Assembly: GCA_049363815.1 (NCBI GenBank)
Contig: JBMQEM010000097.1
Coordinates: 1,925 to 65,924, forward strand
DNA length: 64,000 nt
Direction: 5' to 3'
DNA from: Bacteroidota bacterium
Lineage (GTDB): Bacteria > Bacteroidota > Bacteroidia > AKYH767-A > 2013-40CM-41-45
The notes below the pieces were generated by a model, which saw only the letters and a list, made by a program, of their open reading frames with translations, was not told where the DNA came from and made no database searches. A program made the position numbers and the translations under genes. Positions 40,469 to 51,172 of the stretch are shown here, in pieces; the stretch's first letter is position 1; the number at the start of each line of letters is the position of its first letter.

Positions 40469-41656
40469 TTATGAATTCACGAAGACCAGGTCTTCGGGAA
40501 GAATGGTATTGTTTTCAGACATGATCGCAGCTCTTTCGATGACCGCTTTTAATTCCCTGATATTACCGGGCCAGTTATATTCCAAAAGGAATTTTGTTGC
40601 CTCTTTGCTCAACTGGATGTTTGGCATTCTGTTTTCTTTGCAGAAATCTGCAAGGAAATTTTTTGAAAGCAGGACAACATCATCGCCTCTTTCCAAAAGA
40701 GTAGGTAAGTGGATCAGGAATCCTTGCAGACGATAGAATAGATCTTCTCTGAATCTTCCTTCTTTAACTTCTTGTACCAGGTTTTTATTTGTTGCAGCGA
40801 TTACGCGGACATCCAGTTTAATTGACTTATTACTTCCGATGCGGGTGACTTCTTTTTCCTGAAGTACTCTCAGGAGTTTTGTCTGCATCATCATATCCAT
40901 TTCACCGATCTCATCAAGAAAAATAGTTCCCTCGTTAGCCTCTTCAAATTTTCCTATCCTTCGGTCACGTGCATCTGTAAAGGCACCTTTCTCATGCCCG
41001 AACAATTCACTTTCAATAAGGTCTTCAGGAATGGCTCCCATATTAACTGTAACAAATGGCTTTTTTGCTCTTTGTGAATTATAATGGATTGCCCTTGATA
41101 CCAGTTCTTTTCCAGTTCCGCTTTGTCCGGTTACCAAAACCATGATATTGCTCTTCTCAACTTTCTGGATCAATCGAAGTACTTTTAATACCGGACTGCT
41201 ATTACCTAAAATGTTATTGTATTTATTACGGTCGATGACGATTTCTTTTAAAGCATCATTCTCCTGTTTCAGATATACGGTTTTACAAAGTGTCTTTACG
41301 GAATTTTCGAGATTTACTAAGGCATTATCATTCTTTATAATATAATCAGAAGCACCTTTTCTGTACGTGTCAATCACTACATCGATCTTTTCCTGACCGG
41401 AAACCATAACGCACTGAATATTGTCGTTATAATTTTTGATCTTTTCCATCAGTTCAATTCCATTCATTCCGGGAAGCATATAATCGATCGAAACGATATC
41501 GGGGTTCAGGTGTAAATTGCTTAAACAATCCTGAGGTGACATGAAATGTGTTACTTCGCAATTATCGAGTTTTTCCAAGGTCTTCTTGATCAAACTTCCC
41601 AGGAAGTGATCATCCTCTACTATAAATACTTTTATAAGTCCCATTGTTTTAAACAC
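40469..41656 (-). CDS. Sigma54-dependent response regulator (REC + AAA+), no C-terminal HTH
   Basis: REC (EDD, IDYMLP), Walker A GQSGTGKE, ESELFGHEKGAFTDA, Walker B FLDEIG, FREDLFYRL, WPGNIREL; stops at ILPEDLVFVNS. Probable ATG at 41644. Confidence 0.92.
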   Translation of the reverse strand: MFKTMGLIKVFIVEDDHFLGSLIKKTLEKLDNCEVTHFMSPQDCLSNLHLNPDIVSIDYMLPGMNGIELMEKIKNYNDNIQCVMVSGQEKIDVVIDTYRKGASDYIIKNDNALVNLENSVKTLCKTVYLKQENDALKEIVIDRNKYNNILGNSSPVLKVLRLIQKVEKSNIMVLVTGQSGTGKELVSRAIHYNSQRAKKPFVTVNMGAIPEDLIESELFGHEKGAFTDARDRRIGKFEEANEGTIFLDEIGEMDMMMQTKLLRVLQEKEVTRIGSNKSIKLDVRVIAATNKNLVQEVKEGRFREDLFYRLQGFLIHLPTLLERGDDVVLLSKNFLADFCKENRMPNIQLSKEATKFLLEYNWPGNIRELKAVIERAAIMSENNTILPEDLVFVNS

Positions 41657-41757: not shown

Positions 41758-42909
41758 ATGAAAAGCAGGTTGATTTTAACAATTATCGTGATTTTCCTTG
41801 CTACACCTCTGTGGATGAGGATAGGATGGGAATTTTCGCCTAAACGAAAGCTAAACCTGCTCATCGTCGATAAGACGGTACTGAACTCCAATAGTTTCAA
41901 ACACCGCTCGATAAACTGGATCCTGGATTACGAAAAATACATCAAACCTGACGGTTCTTTCTACGATATCAACAACGACTATTTTGGTTTTTTCCCAAAA
42001 GAAGATGAAAGGTATCAGATTCATGATTTTGAAAAACTTGATGAACCCGAAGTGGATAGTATTTCTAAAGTATACAATCTTGCCTATTTCGCCGATACCT
42101 ACGGAGTCCTTGGAAATGAATGGTATTCGCACAGAGATATTAATGATAATTCAGAAAGTATTTATGGCGGATTAACAGAGAAGGATCTGCTCCTCATGAC
42201 AAAAATGAAGAGTAAAAATAAACCGGTCATTGCTGAATTCAATACCATTGGTTATCCGACACCGGTTGATATGCGGCGGCAGTTTGAAAAATTATGGGGC
42301 ATAGAATGGACAGGATGGATGGCAAGACATATTGCATCACTTGATACTCTAAATAATCCTGACCTTCCTAAATGGATAGTAAGGGCTTATAAAAAGGAGC
42401 ATAACGGTGTCTGGAATTTCAAGAAAGATGGAATGCTCTTCATCCATGAAACCGGCAAGGTGCTGGTGCTGGAAATGGGCAAAGAGTTAAATGACGCCAT
42501 CCCGAAGATCTATACGGATAAAGTGAATCAGGAAGCTTTTGATGTACCTGCAGTGATGATCTATCCGTACTGGATCGATATCATGGTAAATAAAAATGAT
42601 ACCAATAATGTCATTTCAAAATATGTACTGGGAACTAATCCTGCCGGAGAAGCTTTGCTCTCTGCAAATGGAATCCCAAAGATCTTTCCTGCGATCATTC
42701 ACAGAAATAAAGATTTTCAATTCTATTATTTCTGCGGTGACTTTGCCGATAATCCAACAAAGTTCCGTTTCGCTAAACTGTCAGGAATTACGACTCTGAA
42801 GTTTTTAATGTATAATGCAGTTGATGTGACAGATAGAAACAGATTTTTCTGGGAGTTTTACCTTCCGATGATGAAAAAGATCTTAAAGAAAAGTTATACT
42901 TCGATTTAA
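41758..42909 (+). CDS. Hypothetical membrane-anchored periplasmic protein (DKTV / ADTYGV motifs)
   Basis: 383-aa ORF with an N-terminal hydrophobic anchor; I cannot assign a family with confidence. Confidence 0.75.
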   Translation: MKSRLILTIIVIFLATPLWMRIGWEFSPKRKLNLLIVDKTVLNSNSFKHRSINWILDYEKYIKPDGSFYDINNDYFGFFPKEDERYQIHDFEKLDEPEVDSISKVYNLAYFADTYGVLGNEWYSHRDINDNSESIYGGLTEKDLLLMTKMKSKNKPVIAEFNTIGYPTPVDMRRQFEKLWGIEWTGWMARHIASLDTLNNPDLPKWIVRAYKKEHNGVWNFKKDGMLFIHETGKVLVLEMGKELNDAIPKIYTDKVNQEAFDVPAVMIYPYWIDIMVNKNDTNNVISKYVLGTNPAGEALLSANGIPKIFPAIIHRNKDFQFYYFCGDFADNPTKFRFAKLSGITTLKFLMYNAVDVTDRNRFFWEFYLPMMKKILKKSYTSI

Positions 42910-42925
42910 AAAATGAGATAAAATA

Positions 42926-42970
42926 AAAAATGAAGAATGATCAGTAGTTCATTCTTCATTCTTCATTTTT
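42926..42970. repeat. Heptamer palindrome (AATGAAG / CTTCATT) between convergent genes
   Basis: aaaaatgaagaatga-tcagtagt-tcattcttcattcttcattttt. Confidence 0.75.
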
Positions 42971-42983
42971 AATTTTGTATTTC

Positions 42984-44420
42984 CTAGCTCTTTTTAGCTG
43001 CTCTGGTAAATCCCTGTCTTTTCATTTCACCCCAGTTTTTAACTCCCGTCATAAGGTCAAGATTTCCTCTGATAGCATAATAAACGGTGAGTGGGTGAAT
43101 AAATAATGGTTCGATCAAAGCTGTACCAAGCAACCTGAGGATATCGCGTTTCTTTTTGTACTGATGGAAACTCAACTCTTCAAAGAGGATTGCTGCTGTG
43201 GAGTACATGATCGCAAAGGCATAGATCAATAAAAATAGTACGACAAACAATTCAACGTTCAGGATTCCCAAAAAAGCCATCATGATGAGGTAAAGGAATG
43301 CAGTCGTTTCTACGATAGGAGCCATGTATTCAAACAATAACCAGAATGGCATACTTACCATTCCAAGAAATTTGTACTTCGGATTAAAGATGAGCTTTTT
43401 ATGGATCCACAACGTCTCTGCTGTTCCTCTTGTCCAGCGATTTCTCTGCTTACTCAGGATCTTAAAATTGTTCGGTGCTTCTGTCCAGCAAAGGGGATCG
43501 GGAAGATACACTACACGATACTTTTCTTTCCGCTCTTCCATGTACCTCCGCATCCTGATCACCAGCTCCATATCTTCGCCAACTGTATTATGATTGTAAC
43601 CACCTGAATCAATTGCAATCTTCTTATCGAACATTCCAAACGCTCCTGAGATCAGAATCAGTCCATTTAACCTGCTCCAGGCCATCCGTCCCAGTAAAAA
43701 TGCACGGATATATTCAAGAACCTGTATGCGTGGGATAATTTCAGTAGGCAAATTTACTTTGGTGATCTTGCCTTCATTCACCTCACATGAGTTGGCGATA
43801 CGAACGACACCACCTACAGCAATTACTCTGTCGGTTTCTGTCTGCTCCATAAATGGTTTGACCATTTTAAGCAGCGATTCATACTCTAGAATACAGTCTA
43901 CGTCAATTGCGGCAAAGATTCCGTATCTGGAAATATTTATCCCGGAATTCAGTGCATCCGCTTTTCCGCCATTGACTTTGTCAACAACTGTCAGTTTACT
44001 TAATGATGGAATAGTGGATTTATAAACAGCCCGAATCGGTTTTGATGCTATCTTTTCTTCAAAGGCATATGGTACAGGTTCCAGATCATATGCCTTGATC
44101 ATCAATTCAAGTGTATTGTCCTTGGAGCCGTCATTGACGATGATCACTTCGAAATTCACATAGTGAATATTCAGTAATGACCTCACATTTTCAACAATGG
44201 TTTTTGATTCATTGTATGCCGGTGCAATAATGGAAATAGATGGAGCAGAAGGCGCAGCAAGAATATCACGATAGTCTATAAAGCTGTTCCGGCGCATGTA
44301 ATTGATAATATCAAATGCGGAAACAGTTGACAGGATAAAGTAGGTGCCAAACAAAATACAGCTGTAGACCAAAATAAAATGATCTGCAAACTTTGTAAAA
44401 TAATAGAAAAACAAACCCAT
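42984..44420 (-). CDS. Processive GT2 polysaccharide synthase (PgaC/IcaA-like topology)
   Basis: One N-terminal TM, PAYNE, VNDGSKD, KVNGGKADALN, DVD, SGAFGMF, VGED, QRNRW (QxxRW), then about 3 TMs. Confidence 0.9.
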   Translation of the reverse strand: MGLFFYYFTKFADHFILVYSCILFGTYFILSTVSAFDIINYMRRNSFIDYRDILAAPSAPSISIIAPAYNESKTIVENVRSLLNIHYVNFEVIIVNDGSKDNTLELMIKAYDLEPVPYAFEEKIASKPIRAVYKSTIPSLSKLTVVDKVNGGKADALNSGINISRYGIFAAIDVDCILEYESLLKMVKPFMEQTETDRVIAVGGVVRIANSCEVNEGKITKVNLPTEIIPRIQVLEYIRAFLLGRMAWSRLNGLILISGAFGMFDKKIAIDSGGYNHNTVGEDMELVIRMRRYMEERKEKYRVVYLPDPLCWTEAPNNFKILSKQRNRWTRGTAETLWIHKKLIFNPKYKFLGMVSMPFWLLFEYMAPIVETTAFLYLIMMAFLGILNVELFVVLFLLIYAFAIMYSTAAILFEELSFHQYKKKRDILRLLGTALIEPLFIHPLTVYYAIRGNLDLMTGVKNWGEMKRQGFTRAAKKS

Positions 44421-44423
44421 AGT

Positions 44424-45578
44424 TTATAACCTCCTGTCACGAGCGTGACGAATCATTAATTGTAGTTGCGGTCCGGATTGATTGAATATGGATTCAATCA
44501 CCTGTTCACCGTTTGTATGTATGGAAAGAAGGGAGCGGACTGCCTGGATGGAAACCAGGTAATCTTCAACCGGCTGACGAATGATCTTCTCCAGTACAGG
44601 AATTGACTTCGAGCTTCCAATTATTTCAAGCGTTTTTAATATTTCAGTCTTTAGTGTGAGATTTTCCAATGGGTAGATCTCCAGCAATGATTCTTCACCG
44701 TCTGTTGCACTTAACTCCCTTAATGCACGGATCACTGCTAATTTCAGACGCATATCCTGGCTCTTCAGCAGAACCAGCAATGTTTTAATTGATTCCCTTT
44801 GTCTGAAACGCCCTATCATTTGTATGCAGAAAATGACAACGTCTTTGTTAGTTGAATTCAACCAGAAACTAAAATCAGGGATCATCTTTTCCGGCATTTT
44901 GGTCAGCATGTTGTAGATGTTTGCTGAATCCCAGTCAGACAAGTGTTCTGTTTCCTTTGCAAGAAAGGCAAGCGGATCGGTGTCGCTTAATTTCATAAGC
45001 GCAATCCTTGTTTCCATCCTCAGGATCTCATTCTTGCTGTTCAGAAATCCGCTGATTTCATGATAACCGGATCTTACATTCATGATCGCCAGTTCTTTCA
45101 TGCCTTTGGCAATGATGTACCAGCGCTTGCTTTTTAATTTGACCATTGAATCTTTTTCAAACCCAAGGTATCTGTAAATTTCTTCCAATCGTTCTGCAGT
45201 TTCACCGGTGAAATTTTCATGCAGATGTATTATCTCATCAAGCAGGGTAGTGCGGTTGAAAGGGATTTTCAGATCCGCCTTGTCAACCATCGACAAAACT
45301 TTCTTCTCTGTCAATCCTTCATCAAATAACAACTCACGAAAAACCGGCTGATACTTTTTTAGAAGTTCTGTCTTTTTGTTCAGCCTTTTTGTCTTGTAAA
45401 TTCTGCTTCCCATTATCACACCCAAAAGAATGAGAATAATGATCATGAATAGAATGGTTACACCGATCAGGATCCTGATATGTACAGGAAAACTATAGAT
45501 AGATCGTCCTACCTCATCTACAGAATACTGCAGATCAGAAAAATTCATTTGAAGAAATATGGACGATAGAAATTGCAA
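44424..45578 (-). CDS. Single-TM protein with cytoplasmic HEAT/ARM-like repeats
   Basis: TM helix at about residues 33-57, then helical repeats (LLVLLKSQDMRLKLAVIRALREL, LKTLEIIGSSKSIPVL); 3 nt from the GT2 start. Confidence 0.8.
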   Translation of the reverse strand: MQFLSSIFLQMNFSDLQYSVDEVGRSIYSFPVHIRILIGVTILFMIIILILLGVIMGSRIYKTKRLNKKTELLKKYQPVFRELLFDEGLTEKKVLSMVDKADLKIPFNRTTLLDEIIHLHENFTGETAERLEEIYRYLGFEKDSMVKLKSKRWYIIAKGMKELAIMNVRSGYHEISGFLNSKNEILRMETRIALMKLSDTDPLAFLAKETEHLSDWDSANIYNMLTKMPEKMIPDFSFWLNSTNKDVVIFCIQMIGRFRQRESIKTLLVLLKSQDMRLKLAVIRALRELSATDGEESLLEIYPLENLTLKTEILKTLEIIGSSKSIPVLEKIIRQPVEDYLVSIQAVRSLLSIHTNGEQVIESIFNQSGPQLQLMIRHARDRRL

Positions 45579-45585
45579 ATTGATA

Positions 45586-46947
45586 TTAGTTGTTTAATTG
45601 TTTATTCAGTTCTTCGATCTGATTTTCAATAGAGATTCTTCTGGCATTCAGGAAGGACTTAAGCCCCGGAATAAAATTTCCCGGATCCAGCGGATCACCA
45701 ACAGTCGTATTTATGTTCGTGTCAAAATCGGTGTTTGAATACATTTTGTTGACATCGGCATAAACTGAGACCCGGATCCTTAAGCTTATACTGTCTATTT
45801 TCTGATTAATTACTTCTTCGCTGAAATGTTTCCGGAGAAGTTCATTCATGATTGCGAGATATCGTTTCTGAATGATCTTATTGTCGCCTAATGTTTTTTC
45901 CAGCAATGGGCGTGGCTGATGGTATGGAACTGAATCCGGCACAAGGATATTTAGGTTCTCCAGTTGACGCAAAGGCATAACCGGATTCCATGCAGCAAAA
46001 CTGTAGTTTCCATCTAAGGAGATCCATTGCCATTTAGAAGTTACTGTATCATGATAGAGAAAGAAGTTGTGCGGATAGAACATATTATACGCATCGATAT
46101 TGCCTATAATATTGTTGACAGCCCATGCTCTCAGGCATTTGTCAAGATTGAAAGCTGATTCCAGTTTTTTTGTATACTCTTCATTTGTGGCAACTGTATC
46201 GTTGATCAACCTGATGAATTTCACAAGATCTGTCCAGTCGTTCTTTTTGGTATTATTCTTCAGCACATATCGATTCCAGTATTTCATCGGTTCGTTTCCA
46301 AAATATACAAAGTTGGCTTGAGGTTCACCTTGAAATAAATTTCCTGCCGAACTATTGAACCGGGTTTCCAAAAACACCTTGTCAATACTTTCATTCACTA
46401 AATAGAGTCCCCAGTATTTATCATTCAGATAGACCTTAGCATAAGTAGCCCGGGGTGCCGGTAATCCTTCACTATTCAGAATGTCGAGGTACAGTTTCTC
46501 GCGCATCATGGAAGGATCTTTGAAATTATTGGTAAGGTTCAATTCTTCTATTCCGTGAAAATCCTGACCCTTGATGAACTTATTGAATTTTAATCTGAAT
46601 GGTTTTTTCTTTCCGGGATAAAAATCGTATGATGATTCACCTTTAAAACGCACACCGGTAGAGTAGAATTTTTTATTATCAATGATCACATTGGCCTGAA
46701 GATAATTATTCAACTCCAGTGAGTCCATCATCTTTTTGTTATAAGTGAGTGAATCCCAGAAACTGCATTGAGTAAAGTTGATTCGAATGACATGAATAGA
46801 ATCTTTCTCGAAAAAACTTTTTCCATAGTCTTTCTTCGAAGTTTTTTTCGTGCCCTCTTTTGCCTGAGCAAATACATCTGCCTGACTAAAAAGTGTCAGG
46901 AGCAGGGTGACTAGTATATATTTTCTTAGCATTTCTATGTGGATCAA
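45586..46947 (-). CDS. CotH-family secreted kinase
   Basis: Signal peptide (..VFA/Q), GVRFKGESS, KKPFRLKF, LNL.NNFKDPSMMRE, YWGLYL..ESID, NIDAY..HN, W.WISLDGNYSF. Probable ATG at 46932. Confidence 0.88.
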   Translation of the reverse strand: MIHIEMLRKYILVTLLLTLFSQADVFAQAKEGTKKTSKKDYGKSFFEKDSIHVIRINFTQCSFWDSLTYNKKMMDSLELNNYLQANVIIDNKKFYSTGVRFKGESSYDFYPGKKKPFRLKFNKFIKGQDFHGIEELNLTNNFKDPSMMREKLYLDILNSEGLPAPRATYAKVYLNDKYWGLYLVNESIDKVFLETRFNSSAGNLFQGEPQANFVYFGNEPMKYWNRYVLKNNTKKNDWTDLVKFIRLINDTVATNEEYTKKLESAFNLDKCLRAWAVNNIIGNIDAYNMFYPHNFFLYHDTVTSKWQWISLDGNYSFAAWNPVMPLRQLENLNILVPDSVPYHQPRPLLEKTLGDNKIIQKRYLAIMNELLRKHFSEEVINQKIDSISLRIRVSVYADVNKMYSNTDFDTNINTTVGDPLDPGNFIPGLKSFLNARRISIENQIEELNKQLNN

Positions 46948-48290
46948 AAAACTGTTTTAAGCGTGATACCTGTTATGACTCTTTTGGTATAAATTGTAGT
47001 TGCATCTTCTGCGTCACCACTAAGTCCTGTAGTTCTTAATGGCTCTCTTGATAAACCGCAATCAATTTTTATTACCCATCTTCCGAATGCACTTTTCTGT
47101 GCTTCAATTCCGGCAGAGTAGGAGCGGGTTTGAATTCCCTGCTCAAGTTTGGCAGATTCGTCCGGTGATTTACCACGGCTCAGTTTGATCCCAAGGTAAT
47201 TATCACCATCGCCGAAATATTTCCGGGCTGCAACAATCATCGTCAGTGATGTGTTTTTCAGAGAAGTTGATTGAAATGTCGAATCTGTTTTGGGATTGAT
47301 ATAAGCCCTGAAACTAAACCAGTAATCTTTGTAATAATTTCCTAAACTGGTTGTATAGAAAGATGAACTTGCTTTAAATGTCTGGTAACGGATCCCTGCT
47401 GAATATTCAAATCCGGCAGGAAGTTTAAAATAAAATTCCGCGCCATACTTTTCTTTCGGGAAAATGTCGTCGTATGCATAACCGACAAAAAGATTGGCAT
47501 AGATCTTCTTGGTAAAGTGCGCATAACTTTCTACTTCATACTGAAAGCCTCGCTTTTGAAATTTATTTGCCGTGTTGATCCTCATTGTAAGAGAACCAAA
47601 TGTAAAGTTCCTTCCAACCTGGGCTGAAAGAAATTCCTGTGGGTCTTTTCCGAATGAAAATTCATCGACAGAATAACTGGTCTGGAAATTATTGTTCAGA
47701 CGCTTGCCTTCAAGACTGTTCATCAATTGCAAGGCCTCCTTGTTTCCGGGATTAAAATCCAGGATTCTTCTCAATGTCAGGGCGGCATTTCCTTTATCAT
47801 CCAGTTTCATCTGGAGCTTTGCCTTTTTCAGAAGCAACTCCTCCGAGTTAGGATAATAGCTTAAAGCAATCTTTAAATAGTCATTAGCTACCTCATAATT
47901 CTCACTCCAGAATTCTACATCAAAAAGTGCACTCAAAGCCTCCTGATCGCTTTCTTTCTCGATCAATACACGGCTCAATTCCGTTCTTGCCATATCATAG
48001 TTTTTCTGCCACGTATAAGTCCTGGCTAAAAACGTACGTACATCATAATAATTTGGTTTTTTCTCAAGTATCTTCTGGCAAATTCTTCTGGCCTGAGTGT
48101 AGTTGTCATTGAAACTTAACTCTCGTGCTTTTTTGAAAAGCGCATCAAGATCTGTGGTATCAGTAACAATGACCAATGTGTCTGATGCCTTAGTCTGGGC
48201 TGAGCTCGTAAGGCTGAAACCGGACAGGGTCAAAATCAAAAAAATCAAAAAATGGTTGACTCTGAGCTGCATTTTCATTTTTGAATTCAA
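46944..48290 (-). CDS. TPR + YaiO-family outer-membrane beta-barrel
   Basis: Signal peptide (..SSA/Q), 3-4 TPR helix pairs, then an amphipathic beta-barrel (FQYEVESY, IFPKEKYGAEFY, SAGIRY) ending in Phe. Confidence 0.8.
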   Translation of the reverse strand: MNSKMKMQLRVNHFLIFLILTLSGFSLTSSAQTKASDTLVIVTDTTDLDALFKKARELSFNDNYTQARRICQKILEKKPNYYDVRTFLARTYTWQKNYDMARTELSRVLIEKESDQEALSALFDVEFWSENYEVANDYLKIALSYYPNSEELLLKKAKLQMKLDDKGNAALTLRRILDFNPGNKEALQLMNSLEGKRLNNNFQTSYSVDEFSFGKDPQEFLSAQVGRNFTFGSLTMRINTANKFQKRGFQYEVESYAHFTKKIYANLFVGYAYDDIFPKEKYGAEFYFKLPAGFEYSAGIRYQTFKASSSFYTTSLGNYYKDYWFSFRAYINPKTDSTFQSTSLKNTSLTMIVAARKYFGDGDNYLGIKLSRGKSPDESAKLEQGIQTRSYSAGIEAQKSAFGRWVIKIDCGLSREPLRTTGLSGDAEDATTIYTKRVITGITLKTVF

Positions 48291-48652
48291 TATGATTTCA
48301 TCAGAAGCCTCTTCACCCTGACGGAAAGTTCGTTCGGACTAAATGGTTTTGTGATGAAATCATCTGCTCCCAATTGAAATGCTTCCAATACAGTTTTTTC
48401 TAAACCAATTGATGAAACTATAATAATCGGAACTTTTATATTCAATTGTTTTCTTACCTGATGAACGATCTCCAGCCCGGTTAAATAGGGCATCATGATA
48501 TCGGTAATAATAATGTCGGGTCTCAACTTATCGATCTTTTCAATCGCCTCTTTTCCGTCCTTAGCAAGTATAACTTCATAGCCCTCTTTTTCAAGCTTGA
48601 ACTCTACCATTTTAAGGACCATTTCATCGTCTTCGCAAACTAAGACCTTCAT
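48287..48652 (-). CDS. Single-domain response regulator (REC only)
   Basis: CEDDE, IITDIMMP (phospho-Asp), FITKPF; 121 aa with no output domain. Confidence 0.93.
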   Translation of the reverse strand: MKVLVCEDDEMVLKMVEFKLEKEGYEVILAKDGKEAIEKIDKLRPDIIITDIMMPYLTGLEIVHQVRKQLNIKVPIIIVSSIGLEKTVLEAFQLGADDFITKPFSPNELSVRVKRLLMKSY

Positions 48653-48742: not shown

Positions 48743-51172
48743 CTATTTAAGAGTGGTTAATTCTGTTCGCAGTTGAGCATATGCCTGACTTGTTCTTGAC
48801 TCAATTTCTATGAGCAGTTCATCAACTGCAGGCTCTCTTAATTCTTTCTCATTCATCATTTCAACCTTGGTCAATGCATTCTGTATCTCAGACATTCCCA
48901 TATAACCAAATGAAGGCTTGATTCTGTGTGCCACCTTCCTGAATTCATCCCAGTTTTTATTTTTGAAATGACCATACATTTCTGTGATCGCTTCCGGTGT
49001 TTTATTCAGGAACATTTCTATCATCTCTATCACAAAACTTTCGTTTCCTTCTGCAATTTGTTTCAGATAACTGAGGTTGATCTTCGGTGCATTCAGGAAA
49101 TGATTGATCGATTCTTTTGAAGGAGTAACCGGTGAGGAATTTCCTATTGATGCTCCTGTATCGCTATTTTTATTTGATTGAGTTGAAAGTTTCACTCCCG
49201 CTGTTTTAGGTTCAAAATGAGTATTTTGAACTTGTTTCAACGAAGAATTTTCACTTTGGGTTAGGGCAATTATCTTTTTCTTTAAATCCAGAGGATCGAA
49301 AGGTTTGTTAATATGATCGTTCATTCCATGATCCTTGCATTTCTGCTTTTCAGATGCCGTAGCATGGGCTGTCATGGCCATAATGGGAACTGAACAGAAA
49401 GGTTCCGGTAAAGTAGTCCTGATCGTTTTTGAAGCAGTTAAACCTTCCATGACAGGCATTTGTATGTCCATCAGAATCAGGTCGTAATGACCATTTTTAG
49501 CCAGTTTTACTGCTTCTTCGCCATTGTCGGCAAAGTCGATCGTAGCCTGCCAGTCTGAAAATATCTTCCTGACTACCAATTGGTTAATCTTATTGTCTTC
49601 GGCGATAAGAATCCTCAGATGAGAGATGCTTGCATCACTTTCTTTCTGAACTTCGACCTTTCTGACTGATTCCAGAATAGGGTAGTCGATATGAAAAGAA
49701 AAAGTTGTGCCTGTTCCCGGTTTACTTTTAACTTGAATTTCACCGTTCTGAAGTTCAATGAGTTTTTTTACAATCGTAAGCCCAAGACCGGTTCCACCGA
49801 ATTTCCTTGTCGTTTCAGAACTTGCCTGAGTAAAACTGTCGAAAATGGTAGAGATACTTTTTTCCGGAATACCAATTCCTGAATCTCTTACTTCAAATTG
49901 AACGGTGACCTTATCATTTATTTTCTGGCCCGCCCTGGCAATTATTCTCACTTCACCTTTTTCCGTGAACTTGATAGCATTACTTATCAGATTATTGATG
50001 ATCTGTGAAAGTCGGGTAGGGTCACCGCTGATTGCAGCAGGTAGTTTTGGATCTACTTCCGATACCAGCTGAATTCCTTTCTCATCTGCTTTCGCCTGGA
50101 ATAATTCAATTGCATGTCTGACAGACTGATTCAGGTTGAATGGCACATTTTCAAAAGTCATCTTACCGGCTTCAATCTTTGAGAAGTCTAGAATATCATC
50201 AATGATCACCATCAGATTATCAGAACACATTTTTATTGAATTCAGATAACCGGATTGTTCTTCATTCAAATTAGTATTAAGTAAAATTCGTGTCAGACCA
50301 ATAATTCCATTCATTGGCGTGCGAATCTCATGACTCATATTTGCAAGGAAGTTTTCCTTGATCTTTGCTGTTTCTTCTGCAAGTTGCCTTGCATTTTCTA
50401 GCTGTTCCTGAATGCGCTTATGTGCAGTTACATCAGCTGCAATTCCGATCACACCTATAATGGCATTATCATTGTCGCGTATTGATGTATAAAAGATCTC
50501 GAAATATTTTTTCCCCCATTCAGCAACGATCTTCACTTCCTTTCCTTCAAGTGCCTGATGAAAATACTCCTGTTGAATAGGTATTTCTTTAGAGAAATTT
50601 GCCAGAGGCTGATTGATGAATTTTTCTTTATCAATCTTTAATTCTTCCAGTCCCTTTCCTTCAAATAGTGTGAACTCACTGTTTTTGTTCAATGCAAATA
50701 GGATGATAGGGGAATTGGCAACCACTGCTTTCAACTGATTTTGAGTTGTGCTTAGTTGTAATTCAAGCTCGCGCTGACGTGTCGCCTGTTCTTTCAGGTT
50801 AACCATGTACCGCACACTTTGTGCAATACCTTCACCTGTTAAAAGATCTTTCGGGATGTAATCATTCGCTCCGGTCTTCATTGCTTCAACAGCAATTTTC
50901 TCATCACCTTGACTGGTAACAATAATGATCGGAGACTGATTTCCGGAACTGCGGATCTCTTTCAAAAGATCAATACCTGTTCCACCCGGTAAGTTATAAT
51001 CAAGAAATATACAGTCGTACTCCTGATCCTTTGTAGCAGCTTTCCCACTTTCATGGTCCTCTGCAAAATATAAATCGTGATTAATGCTTGCACTTTTCAA
51101 TGCCTTCTTAATGATCAACCGATCCAACTCGTCGTCCTCGACAACAAGTATCTGAAATTTTCTATCTGCCAT
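48743..51172 (-). CDS. Cytoplasmic hybrid histidine kinase REC-PAS-HisKA-HATPase-REC-Hpt
   Basis: REC1 (FLDYNLP), PAS-like domain, NMSHEIRTPMNG, NLISNAIKFT, DSGIGI, GGTGLGL, REC2 (LMDIQMP), Hpt (VAHRIKPS); no TM segment. Confidence 0.93.
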   Translation of the reverse strand: MADRKFQILVVEDDELDRLIIKKALKSASINHDLYFAEDHESGKAATKDQEYDCIFLDYNLPGGTGIDLLKEIRSSGNQSPIIIVTSQGDEKIAVEAMKTGANDYIPKDLLTGEGIAQSVRYMVNLKEQATRQRELELQLSTTQNQLKAVVANSPIILFALNKNSEFTLFEGKGLEELKIDKEKFINQPLANFSKEIPIQQEYFHQALEGKEVKIVAEWGKKYFEIFYTSIRDNDNAIIGVIGIAADVTAHKRIQEQLENARQLAEETAKIKENFLANMSHEIRTPMNGIIGLTRILLNTNLNEEQSGYLNSIKMCSDNLMVIIDDILDFSKIEAGKMTFENVPFNLNQSVRHAIELFQAKADEKGIQLVSEVDPKLPAAISGDPTRLSQIINNLISNAIKFTEKGEVRIIARAGQKINDKVTVQFEVRDSGIGIPEKSISTIFDSFTQASSETTRKFGGTGLGLTIVKKLIELQNGEIQVKSKPGTGTTFSFHIDYPILESVRKVEVQKESDASISHLRILIAEDNKINQLVVRKIFSDWQATIDFADNGEEAVKLAKNGHYDLILMDIQMPVMEGLTASKTIRTTLPEPFCSVPIMAMTAHATASEKQKCKDHGMNDHINKPFDPLDLKKKIIALTQSENSSLKQVQNTHFEPKTAGVKLSTQSNKNSDTGASIGNSSPVTPSKESINHFLNAPKINLSYLKQIAEGNESFVIEMIEMFLNKTPEAITEMYGHFKNKNWDEFRKVAHRIKPSFGYMGMSEIQNALTKVEMMNEKELREPAVDELLIEIESRTSQAYAQLRTELTTLK

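Follow-up and report, generated by a model that had tools for sequence, protein, structure and literature searches.

What does a secreted relative of a spore-coat protein kinase do in the polysaccharide operon of a bacterium without spores? The question is raised by a 64,000-nucleotide stretch of contig JBMQEM010000097.1 (assembly GCA_049363815.1) from a Bacteroidota bacterium, the whole of which is called the window below, where a CotH-family gene stands between a putative polymer exporter and a membrane synthase. Our study shows this CotH to be a dedicated, exported, lineage-specific accessory of a synthase-dependent exopolysaccharide system. The gene and the two parts of its product on which this description depends are as follows:

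45586..46932, minus strand: CotH-family kinase-fold gene, 448 aa; start from orthologue alignment, stop at 45586
46867..46932, minus strand: CotH signal peptide, residues 1-22; predicted signal peptidase I (SPI) site VFA/QA, read from the sequence
46012..46095, minus strand: catalytic core, with D280 at 46093-46095, H288-N289 at 46066-46071 and D307 at 46012-46014; codons checked

The mechanical open reading frame (45586-46947, -) opens at a TTG at 46947. The true start is the ATG at 46932, five codons further in, which was chosen by alignment with 13 and then 49 relatives and which lies 11 nt past the TGA of the upstream barrel gene. The gene product belongs to the CotH kinase family by profile score, predicted fold and catalytic residues, as the initial annotation had it. 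CotH (PF08757) was the sole domain in a Pfam scan of the product (E 6.1e-58, 197.3 bits against a cut-off of 23.8, profile positions 1-307 of 322), and the only match of a phmmer search against the PDB was the CotH of Bacillus cereus (5JD9/5JDA, E 1e-19). An AlphaFold2 model, based upon an alignment of 50 sequences, reached a predicted local distance difference test score (pLDDT) of 90 and a predicted template modelling score (pTM) of 0.87. Its top Foldseek matches were again 5JDA and 5JD9 (E 8e-23, target-normalized template modelling score 0.86, root-mean-square deviation 3.2 Å, 22 % identity), with CtkA, HipA and lipid kinases next and far behind. The C-terminal helix of the model is long (residues 424-447), and many aromatic residues are invariant. 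One part of the earlier description was not recovered, namely the relation to the Fam20 fold; no Fam20 or POMK chain was among the Foldseek top 50 and no such Pfam match was obtained, so the kinship of CotH and Fam20 is here taken solely from the literature (PMC7821199).

The catalytic motifs, which had been called intact-looking, are indeed conserved. D280, H288-N289 and D307 pair with D224, H228-N229 and D247 of B. cereus CotH in the alignment to 5JD9, which together with PMC7821199 provided the active-site numbering. The two B. cereus aspartates, D224 and D247, are numbered four positions before D228 and D251 of Bacillus subtilis CotH, the substitution of which abolishes kinase activity (PMC7821199). 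D280, N289 and D307, the last being the metal-binding Asp, are invariant in 50 relatives, and K109, K110, D139, R144, N170, G175 and Y177 are also conserved within the clade of this protein, in 26 other CotH sequences and in the aligned B. cereus enzyme. As identity within the clade falls to about 40 % while its catalytic residues stay invariant, catalysis is argued for, and the CotH of this operon is, judged from its sequence, apparently an active enzyme. N283 and Y310, which stand three positions past D280 and D307 respectively, are specific to this CotH clade and may mark a distinct substrate.

The signal peptide is of the Bacteroidota type, MLRKYILVTLLLTLFSQADVFA/QA, and an export signal was seen in 49 of the 50 clade members whose N-termini were inspected. 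Around 40 of these signals have a site of a small residue and Gln (or Lys), a lipobox is present in four or five, and longer signal anchors occur in a few members. Since three different export devices are found on one orthologous domain, the CotH domain is placed outside the cytoplasm. The C-terminal domain of the type IX secretion system (T9SS; Por_Secre_tail) was absent from the product in the domain scan, so the periplasm is the simplest predicted location, and the initial annotation was right about both the signal peptide and the missing T9SS tail. The mature N-terminus, residues 23-37 (46822-46866, -), is a conserved Ser/Thr/Lys-rich, low-confidence tail, QAKEGTKKTSKKDYG, with the consensus KKxKDxGK.

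Bacillus CotH (PF08757; 5JD9, 5JDA) has the same family, fold, catalytic Asp, His-Asn pair and metal-binding Asp as the enzyme of the window. However, the latter is exported by a signal peptide, whereas the Bacillus protein is found in the mother-cell cytoplasm; the two are 22 % identical, and the present protein, which is encoded in a polysaccharide operon, is extended by a beta-hairpin/helix region at the N-terminus and by a helix at the C-terminus. It does not belong to the spore-coat class, as its Bacteroidota host has no spores and no CotB/CotG-like Ser/Lys/Arg-repeat substrates are encoded nearby.

The operon comprises six co-oriented genes, which are, besides CotH and in the order of transcription:

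48743..51172, minus strand: hybrid histidine kinase (REC-PAS-HisKA-HATPase-REC-Hpt by Pfam), heading the co-oriented run and kept upstream in the lineage of the window
48287..48652, minus strand: stand-alone receiver (REC) protein, PF00072 E 2e-29; its stop overlaps the start of the barrel gene
46944..48290, minus strand: TPR + YaiO outer-membrane beta-barrel, putative polymer exporter; PF19413 E 1e-41, TPR repeats, TIGR04390
44424..45578, minus strand: single-pass membrane protein with HEAT repeats, PF13646 E 3e-12; transmembrane (TM) residues 36-54, then a K/R-rich segment
42984..44420, minus strand: PgaC/IcaA-like processive synthase of glycosyltransferase family 2 (GT2); GT2 families, Chitin_synth_2; last gene of the operon

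The REC and barrel genes overlap by 4 nt, and gaps of 11, 7 and 3 nt separate barrel from CotH, CotH from HEAT and HEAT from GT2. CotH thus lies, as had been noted, between the export barrel (46944-48290) and the synthase module (HEAT and GT2, 42984-45578); the barrel gene directly upstream adjoins CotH in related loci too. The nearest NCBIfam family of the synthase, which has TM segments at both ends, is PgaC_IcaA (E 1.5e-40, under its cut-off). With a membrane GT2 synthase and a TPR/beta-barrel exporter, the operon is, by its predicted products, a synthase-dependent exopolysaccharide system. It resembles PgaABCD in that its GT2 is nearest to PgaC/IcaA, its exporter combines TPRs and a beta-barrel as PgaA does, and a modifying enzyme is encoded between them (PgaB in Pga). 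It differs from PgaABCD in that its matches are far under equivalog cut-offs, the barrel is of the YaiO type, REC and TM-HEAT proteins replace PgaD and cyclic di-GMP (c-di-GMP), and there is no PgaB-like deacetylase. No PilZ, GGDEF or GIL domain that could serve as a c-di-GMP receptor was found in the operon proteins by the domain scan, REC and TM-HEAT being there instead. The HEAT domain of the TM-HEAT protein is predicted to be cytoplasmic by the positive-inside rule.

The association of CotH with this operon is conserved. Relatives were collected from prokaryotes, each species being represented by one genome, which gave 79 loci, and in 62 of them CotH had a barrel, HEAT or GT2 gene, or more than one of these, as its neighbour, usually in the order barrel-CotH-HEAT-GT2. 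These linked loci extend down to 40 % CotH identity. Their carriers are uncultured Bacteroidia near Candidatus Pollutiaquabacter (the lineage of the window and a large group), cultured Marinifilaceae (Marinifilum, Ancylomarina and Labilibaculum), metagenome-assembled genomes (MAGs) of Bacteroidales and Chitinophagales, and one Flavobacteriaceae MAG. When a tree was built from CotH domains, all 62 linked proteins fell, with one protein from a contig too short to show its neighbours, into one clade (Shimodaira-Hasegawa-like approximate likelihood ratio test, SH-aLRT, 100), separate from nine paralogues of the own genome and 16 unlinked CotHs. Since the linked CotHs form one clade, the linkage is not due to chance and the proteins represent a distinct orthologous subfamily, which upholds the earlier placement of CotH as an operon member. 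The remaining 17 loci, L063-L079, with CotH below about 40 % identity, were rejected as further examples, being paralogues in unrelated surroundings, near genes for T9SS-tailed proteases, GH3-family proteins and LysE-type transporters. The own 3.8-Mb genome has about 12 CotH-domain genes, most with frames of 450-3000 aa, of which four or five form a clade of their own; secreted CotH proteins have thus undergone a large expansion here. In one CotH-bearing lineage the HEAT protein (L059:9600-12416, +) has 938 aa and a LysM peptidoglycan-binding domain.

CotH is not, however, part of the core of the system. Homologues of the GT2 synthase (E <= 1e-40, 35-60 % identity) were found in 90 of 401 evenly sampled Bacteroidota genomes, and no CotH of this clade was present in any of the 80 synthase-bearing genomes tested, where the best matches were paralogues of 30-37 % identity, never adjacent. 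Being absent from most homologous operons, CotH is an optional, lineage-specific accessory. Gene maps of 26 CotH-less loci revealed a recurring core of REC, TM-HEAT, GT2 and TPR-YaiO, often with the hybrid kinase and the neighbouring protein X383 (see below). The REC gene heads the module, and the TM-HEAT gene is kept beside GT2, in systems with and without CotH alike. In a synthase tree, which was made by a quick search only, CotH-bearing systems occur in several places, and at least three gains or losses are forced by its starred branches. The literature search revealed no paper in which YaiO barrels are linked to TM-HEAT proteins and GT2 synthases, or to CotH, and REC, TM-HEAT, GT2 and TPR-YaiO make up an undescribed, widespread Bacteroidota exopolysaccharide system.

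What the CotH-less operons contain instead bears directly upon the role of CotH. The initial annotation had named sulfatase-like phosphotransferases as an example of what might occupy this slot, and the survey of homologous operons often found such an enzyme, of the LtaS/OpgB type, and never together with CotH. Some synthase homologues are about 1150-1230 aa long (e.g. 1221 and 1145), with extra TM helices followed by a C-terminal Sulfatase domain (PF00884, E 1e-33 to 1e-40). In Flavobacteriaceae-type operons, an approximately 800-aa gene between GT2 and barrel encodes a Sulfatase domain preceded by five hydrophobic segments at the N-terminus and followed by TPRs at the C-terminus. The curated families nearest to the sulfatase-like domain are LtaS and phosphoglycerol transferase I (OpgB), both far under their cut-offs, and the nearest structures are 3LXQ and LtaS. 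Of the 29 best CotH-less loci, at least 14 encoded a multi-TM sulfatase-like domain near the synthase, whereas no such domain was seen in the 62 loci with CotH (Fisher p 7e-9, uncorrected for phylogeny). In the synthase tree, three synthases accompanied by a sulfatase-like gene are the sister group (support 96) of the synthase from L045, the Flavobacteriaceae locus with CotH. We distinguish three forms of the system: bare, with a lipid-dependent phosphotransferase, and with CotH. Synthases with a built-in LtaS/OpgB-like phosphotransferase are an undescribed family of synthase-dependent systems. Fused or following LtaS/OpgB-like genes, at times with a TPR module of their own, were located at L119:7903-11568 (+), L126:6058-9495 (-) and in L136 and L138-L143. 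In L138 (G307:C19:140500-160000) two HEAT-GT2 modules occur in tandem, of which the first precedes Sulfatase/TPR and barrel genes, and the second, with a GT2 of 45 % identity to that of the window, is without an exporter of its own.

Enzymes with the LtaS/OpgB/BcsG architecture use membrane lipids as the source of the phosphoglycerol or phosphoethanolamine that they attach to glycans outside the cytoplasm. The alternation of CotH with an LtaS/OpgB-like enzyme therefore suggests, by analogy, that CotH acts upon the polymer and that phosphate is involved, and it is the best evidence for such a role. BcsG (phosphoethanolamine cellulose), OpgB/MdoB (phosphoglycerol on periplasmic glucans) and LtaS all decorate a glycan with a phosphate-bearing group, as is proposed for CotH; however, they are members of the alkaline-phosphatase superfamily without sequence or fold kinship to CotH, and their donor is a phospholipid, with no soluble donor involved. 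The xylose kinase Fam20B and the O-mannose kinase POMK (SgK196) provide examples of kinase folds that work on glycans outside the cytosol, using ATP imported into the Golgi or endoplasmic reticulum. By this model, a periplasmic CotH would meet the nascent polymer between synthase and barrel and would place phosphate on sugar hydroxyls, so that the polymer would become anionic. It would do by kinase chemistry what sister operons may do with an LtaS/OpgB-like phosphotransferase and phospho-alcohol groups from membrane lipids. The chances that the target is a glycan, to which phosphate is added outside the cytoplasm, appear to be evenly balanced.

An independent association of CotH with exopolysaccharide is found in Gram-positive bacteria, the pel operons of which have as neighbours genes for a secreted CotH-like protein, a polyphosphate polymerase of the VTC type and DUF4956 (PMC7112168). 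Deletion of the CotH-like gene in Streptococcus intermedius, where the accessory genes are SIR_1592-1594, gave less Pel signal and less aggregation in one medium (PMC12345266). The likeness to our system consists of a secreted CotH with a synthase-dependent exopolysaccharide and of linked VTC and DUF4956 genes, although here these are found within the operon only in L044, L046 and L047. In Pel, the synthase is the GT4 enzyme PelF with PelDEG, whereas here it is a PgaC-like GT2 in a Gram-negative cell with an outer-membrane TPR-barrel, and CotH has no FN3 or other extra domain. As the Pel machinery is unrelated to that of this operon, the shared element of the two associations is the secreted polysaccharide.

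The initial annotation had also raised the question of a periplasmic phosphate donor, and aptly so: in three Bacteroidales MAG loci (L044, L046 and L047) the order is GT2, barrel, CotH, VTC, DUF4956, with the last two following CotH, whereas in the own genome they are unlinked to it. Here the single VTC gene (C112:82-837, -) and the single DUF4956 gene (C18:9366-9962, -) lie outside the window and are next to each other once the two contigs are joined, the end of C18 overlapping the start of C112 by 55 nt. No CotH was found beside them, and they are on other contigs than the operon CotH. They are flanked by small secreted or lipoprotein reading frames of 146, 192 and 223 aa. Among the 401 Bacteroidota genomes, CotH was present in 156 and VTC in 62, and when the lists were compared by hand, all 62 VTC genomes also had CotH. 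In many of the VTC-bearing genomes of this sample, VTC and CotH are a few kb apart; 94 genomes have CotH without VTC. VTC occurred in 40 of 49 genomes of the present CotH clade, including all 35 of the lineage of the window, compared to 62 of 401 in the phylum sample. Polyphosphate exported by VTC-DUF4956 is the leading donor candidate in this organism, with ATP or another donor as the alternative.

Beyond the synthase, the operon is bordered by two further features:

42921..42968, no strand: bidirectional terminator-like hairpin, between the ends of GT2 and X383
41758..42909, plus strand: X383, an N-terminally anchored periplasmic protein, convergent on GT2

X383 gave no Pfam or NCBIfam match. 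It occurs in 38 or more CotH-bearing loci and in 6 without CotH, and it belongs to the polysaccharide system, since its homologue opens the same operon in Marinifilaceae. Its AlphaFold2 model (pLDDT 86) has a disordered loop (residues 117-135, pLDDT below 50) and weak matches to ThuA/GATase1-like folds (template modelling score about 0.35/0.5). X383 was considered as the missing hydrolase or deacetylase and rejected, as the model is confident and these matches are weak, and so no function was assigned. A sigma-54 activator (REC + AAA+) without a detectable DNA-binding domain, at 40469-41656 (-), adjoins X383 throughout the lineage of the window but not in Marinifilaceae.

Several observations count against the phosphorylation of the polymer. 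The CotH operon is found without VTC in seven Marinifilaceae isolates and two MAGs. As the seven Marinifilaceae genomes keep the operon without VTC, polyphosphate is not a universal donor, and VTC-derived polyphosphate was rejected as an obligatory one on the strength of these nine genomes and of the 94 CotH-bearing genomes that lack VTC. To our knowledge, the periplasm has no ATP source; a TLC-type ATP/ADP exchanger was not detected in the own genome or in 35 related genomes by a search that had no positive control, so its rejection as an ATP supply is a weak one. The exclusivity of CotH and sulfatase-like genes is statistically inflated because of shared ancestry, as the synthase tree forces only three or more independent events. 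Many operons have neither gene and CotH is missing from 80 of 80 genomes, which indicates that the modification, if real, is dispensable. Furthermore, the characterized CotH enzymes are protein Ser kinases only and act in an ATP-containing cytoplasm (PMC7821199), and the phenotype of the S. intermedius mutant is modest (PMC12345266).

It is in keeping with those enzymes, which autophosphorylate and whose substrates are Ser/Lys/Arg-rich repeats (PMC7821199), that this CotH could be a periplasmic protein kinase which regulates or assembles the export machinery (its targets being X383, the TPR domain of the barrel or its own N-terminal tail), with the polymer left unmodified. Protein phosphorylation was also what Whitfield et al. 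proposed for the Pel-linked CotH (PMC7112168), and the mature N-terminus, TKKTSKKDYGK, is a conserved S/T/K-rich linker that resembles those repeats of the Bacillus substrates and could be an autophosphorylation site. The search for a partner substrate was less favourable. The HEAT protein was rejected, since a HEAT domain predicted to be cytoplasmic by topology cannot be the substrate of a periplasmic enzyme, and a CotH-specific phospho-acceptor in the barrel was rejected because the alignment of barrel proteins contained no Ser/Thr column specific to CotH-bearing systems. In X383, position 132 is Ser/Thr in both CotH-bearing lineages that have this protein and in only one of six homologues from systems without CotH, but S134 varies inside the lineage of the window, and position 132 is a weak lead because several CotH operons (L045, L051, L058 and L046/47) are without X383. 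The alternation of CotH is, moreover, with a glycan/lipid-type phosphotransferase and not with a protein regulator, and the machinery of the Pel system has no protein in common with that of the GT2 system, so that a shared protein substrate is lacking. We consider a protein target rather unlikely. The fold might also be used for another reaction on the polymer, either polyphosphate-dependent phosphotransfer or the transfer of a nucleotide or other group, as no ATP supply is known in the periplasm, every one of the 62 VTC-bearing genomes among the 401 has CotH, VTC-DUF4956 is within the operon in L044, L046 and L047, and the clade-specific N283 and Y310 lie near the catalytic Asp residues. Kinase-fold enzymes with different chemistry exist, such as SelO (AMPylation) and SidJ (glutamylation). 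Against such a reaction, B. cereus CotH, which uses ATP, has the same catalytic and metal-binding residues, VTC is missing from 94 CotH-bearing genomes and from nine with this operon, counted separately, and there is no biochemical precedent inside the CotH family, which together make it distinctly improbable.

A catalytically silent CotH that acts as a polymer-binding chaperone or scaffold, passing the chain to the TPR-barrel, is very doubtful. Pseudokinases are common, and the long C-terminal helix (424-447) and many invariant aromatic residues would suit such a role; yet K109, K110, D139, R144, D280, N289 and D307 are invariant to 40 % identity, which is unexpected for a dead enzyme. That CotH merely sits in the operon and is functionally unrelated to the polysaccharide system is hardly credible: although it is absent from most homologous operons and about 11 other CotH paralogues occur in the genome in other contexts, it occupies the same slot in 62 loci from several orders, the CotHs so linked form a single clade and the gaps between genes are of 3-11 nt. 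The phosphorylation of the glycan may be taken further, to a first periplasmic polysaccharide kinase, in which a PgaC-type polymer would be phosphorylated during export by a donor other than cytoplasmic ATP, most likely VTC-DUF4956 polyphosphate, as an alternative to LtaS/OpgB-like transferases; in this complete form the proposal is tentative and somewhat unlikely.

In summary, CotH accessories of exopolysaccharide loci and periplasmic polymer-modifying enzymes are already known kinds, whereas the exopolysaccharide system of REC, TM-HEAT, GT2 and TPR-YaiO, with interchangeable decoration modules, is newly defined. The known periplasmic modifications of exopolysaccharides are deacetylation, acetylation, epimerization and phosphoethanolamine addition, none of which draws on a soluble energy donor, as no ATP pool is known in the periplasm. 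An apparently active kinase-fold enzyme between synthase and exporter challenges that picture. The presence of the operon in cultivable Marinifilaceae provides a testable case both for the role of secreted CotHs in non-sporulating bacteria and for the phosphate source of an extracytoplasmic kinase. Should CotH prove to be a polysaccharide kinase supplied with polyphosphate by VTC-DUF4956, this would represent a general bacterial way to power kinase chemistry beyond the cytoplasm.

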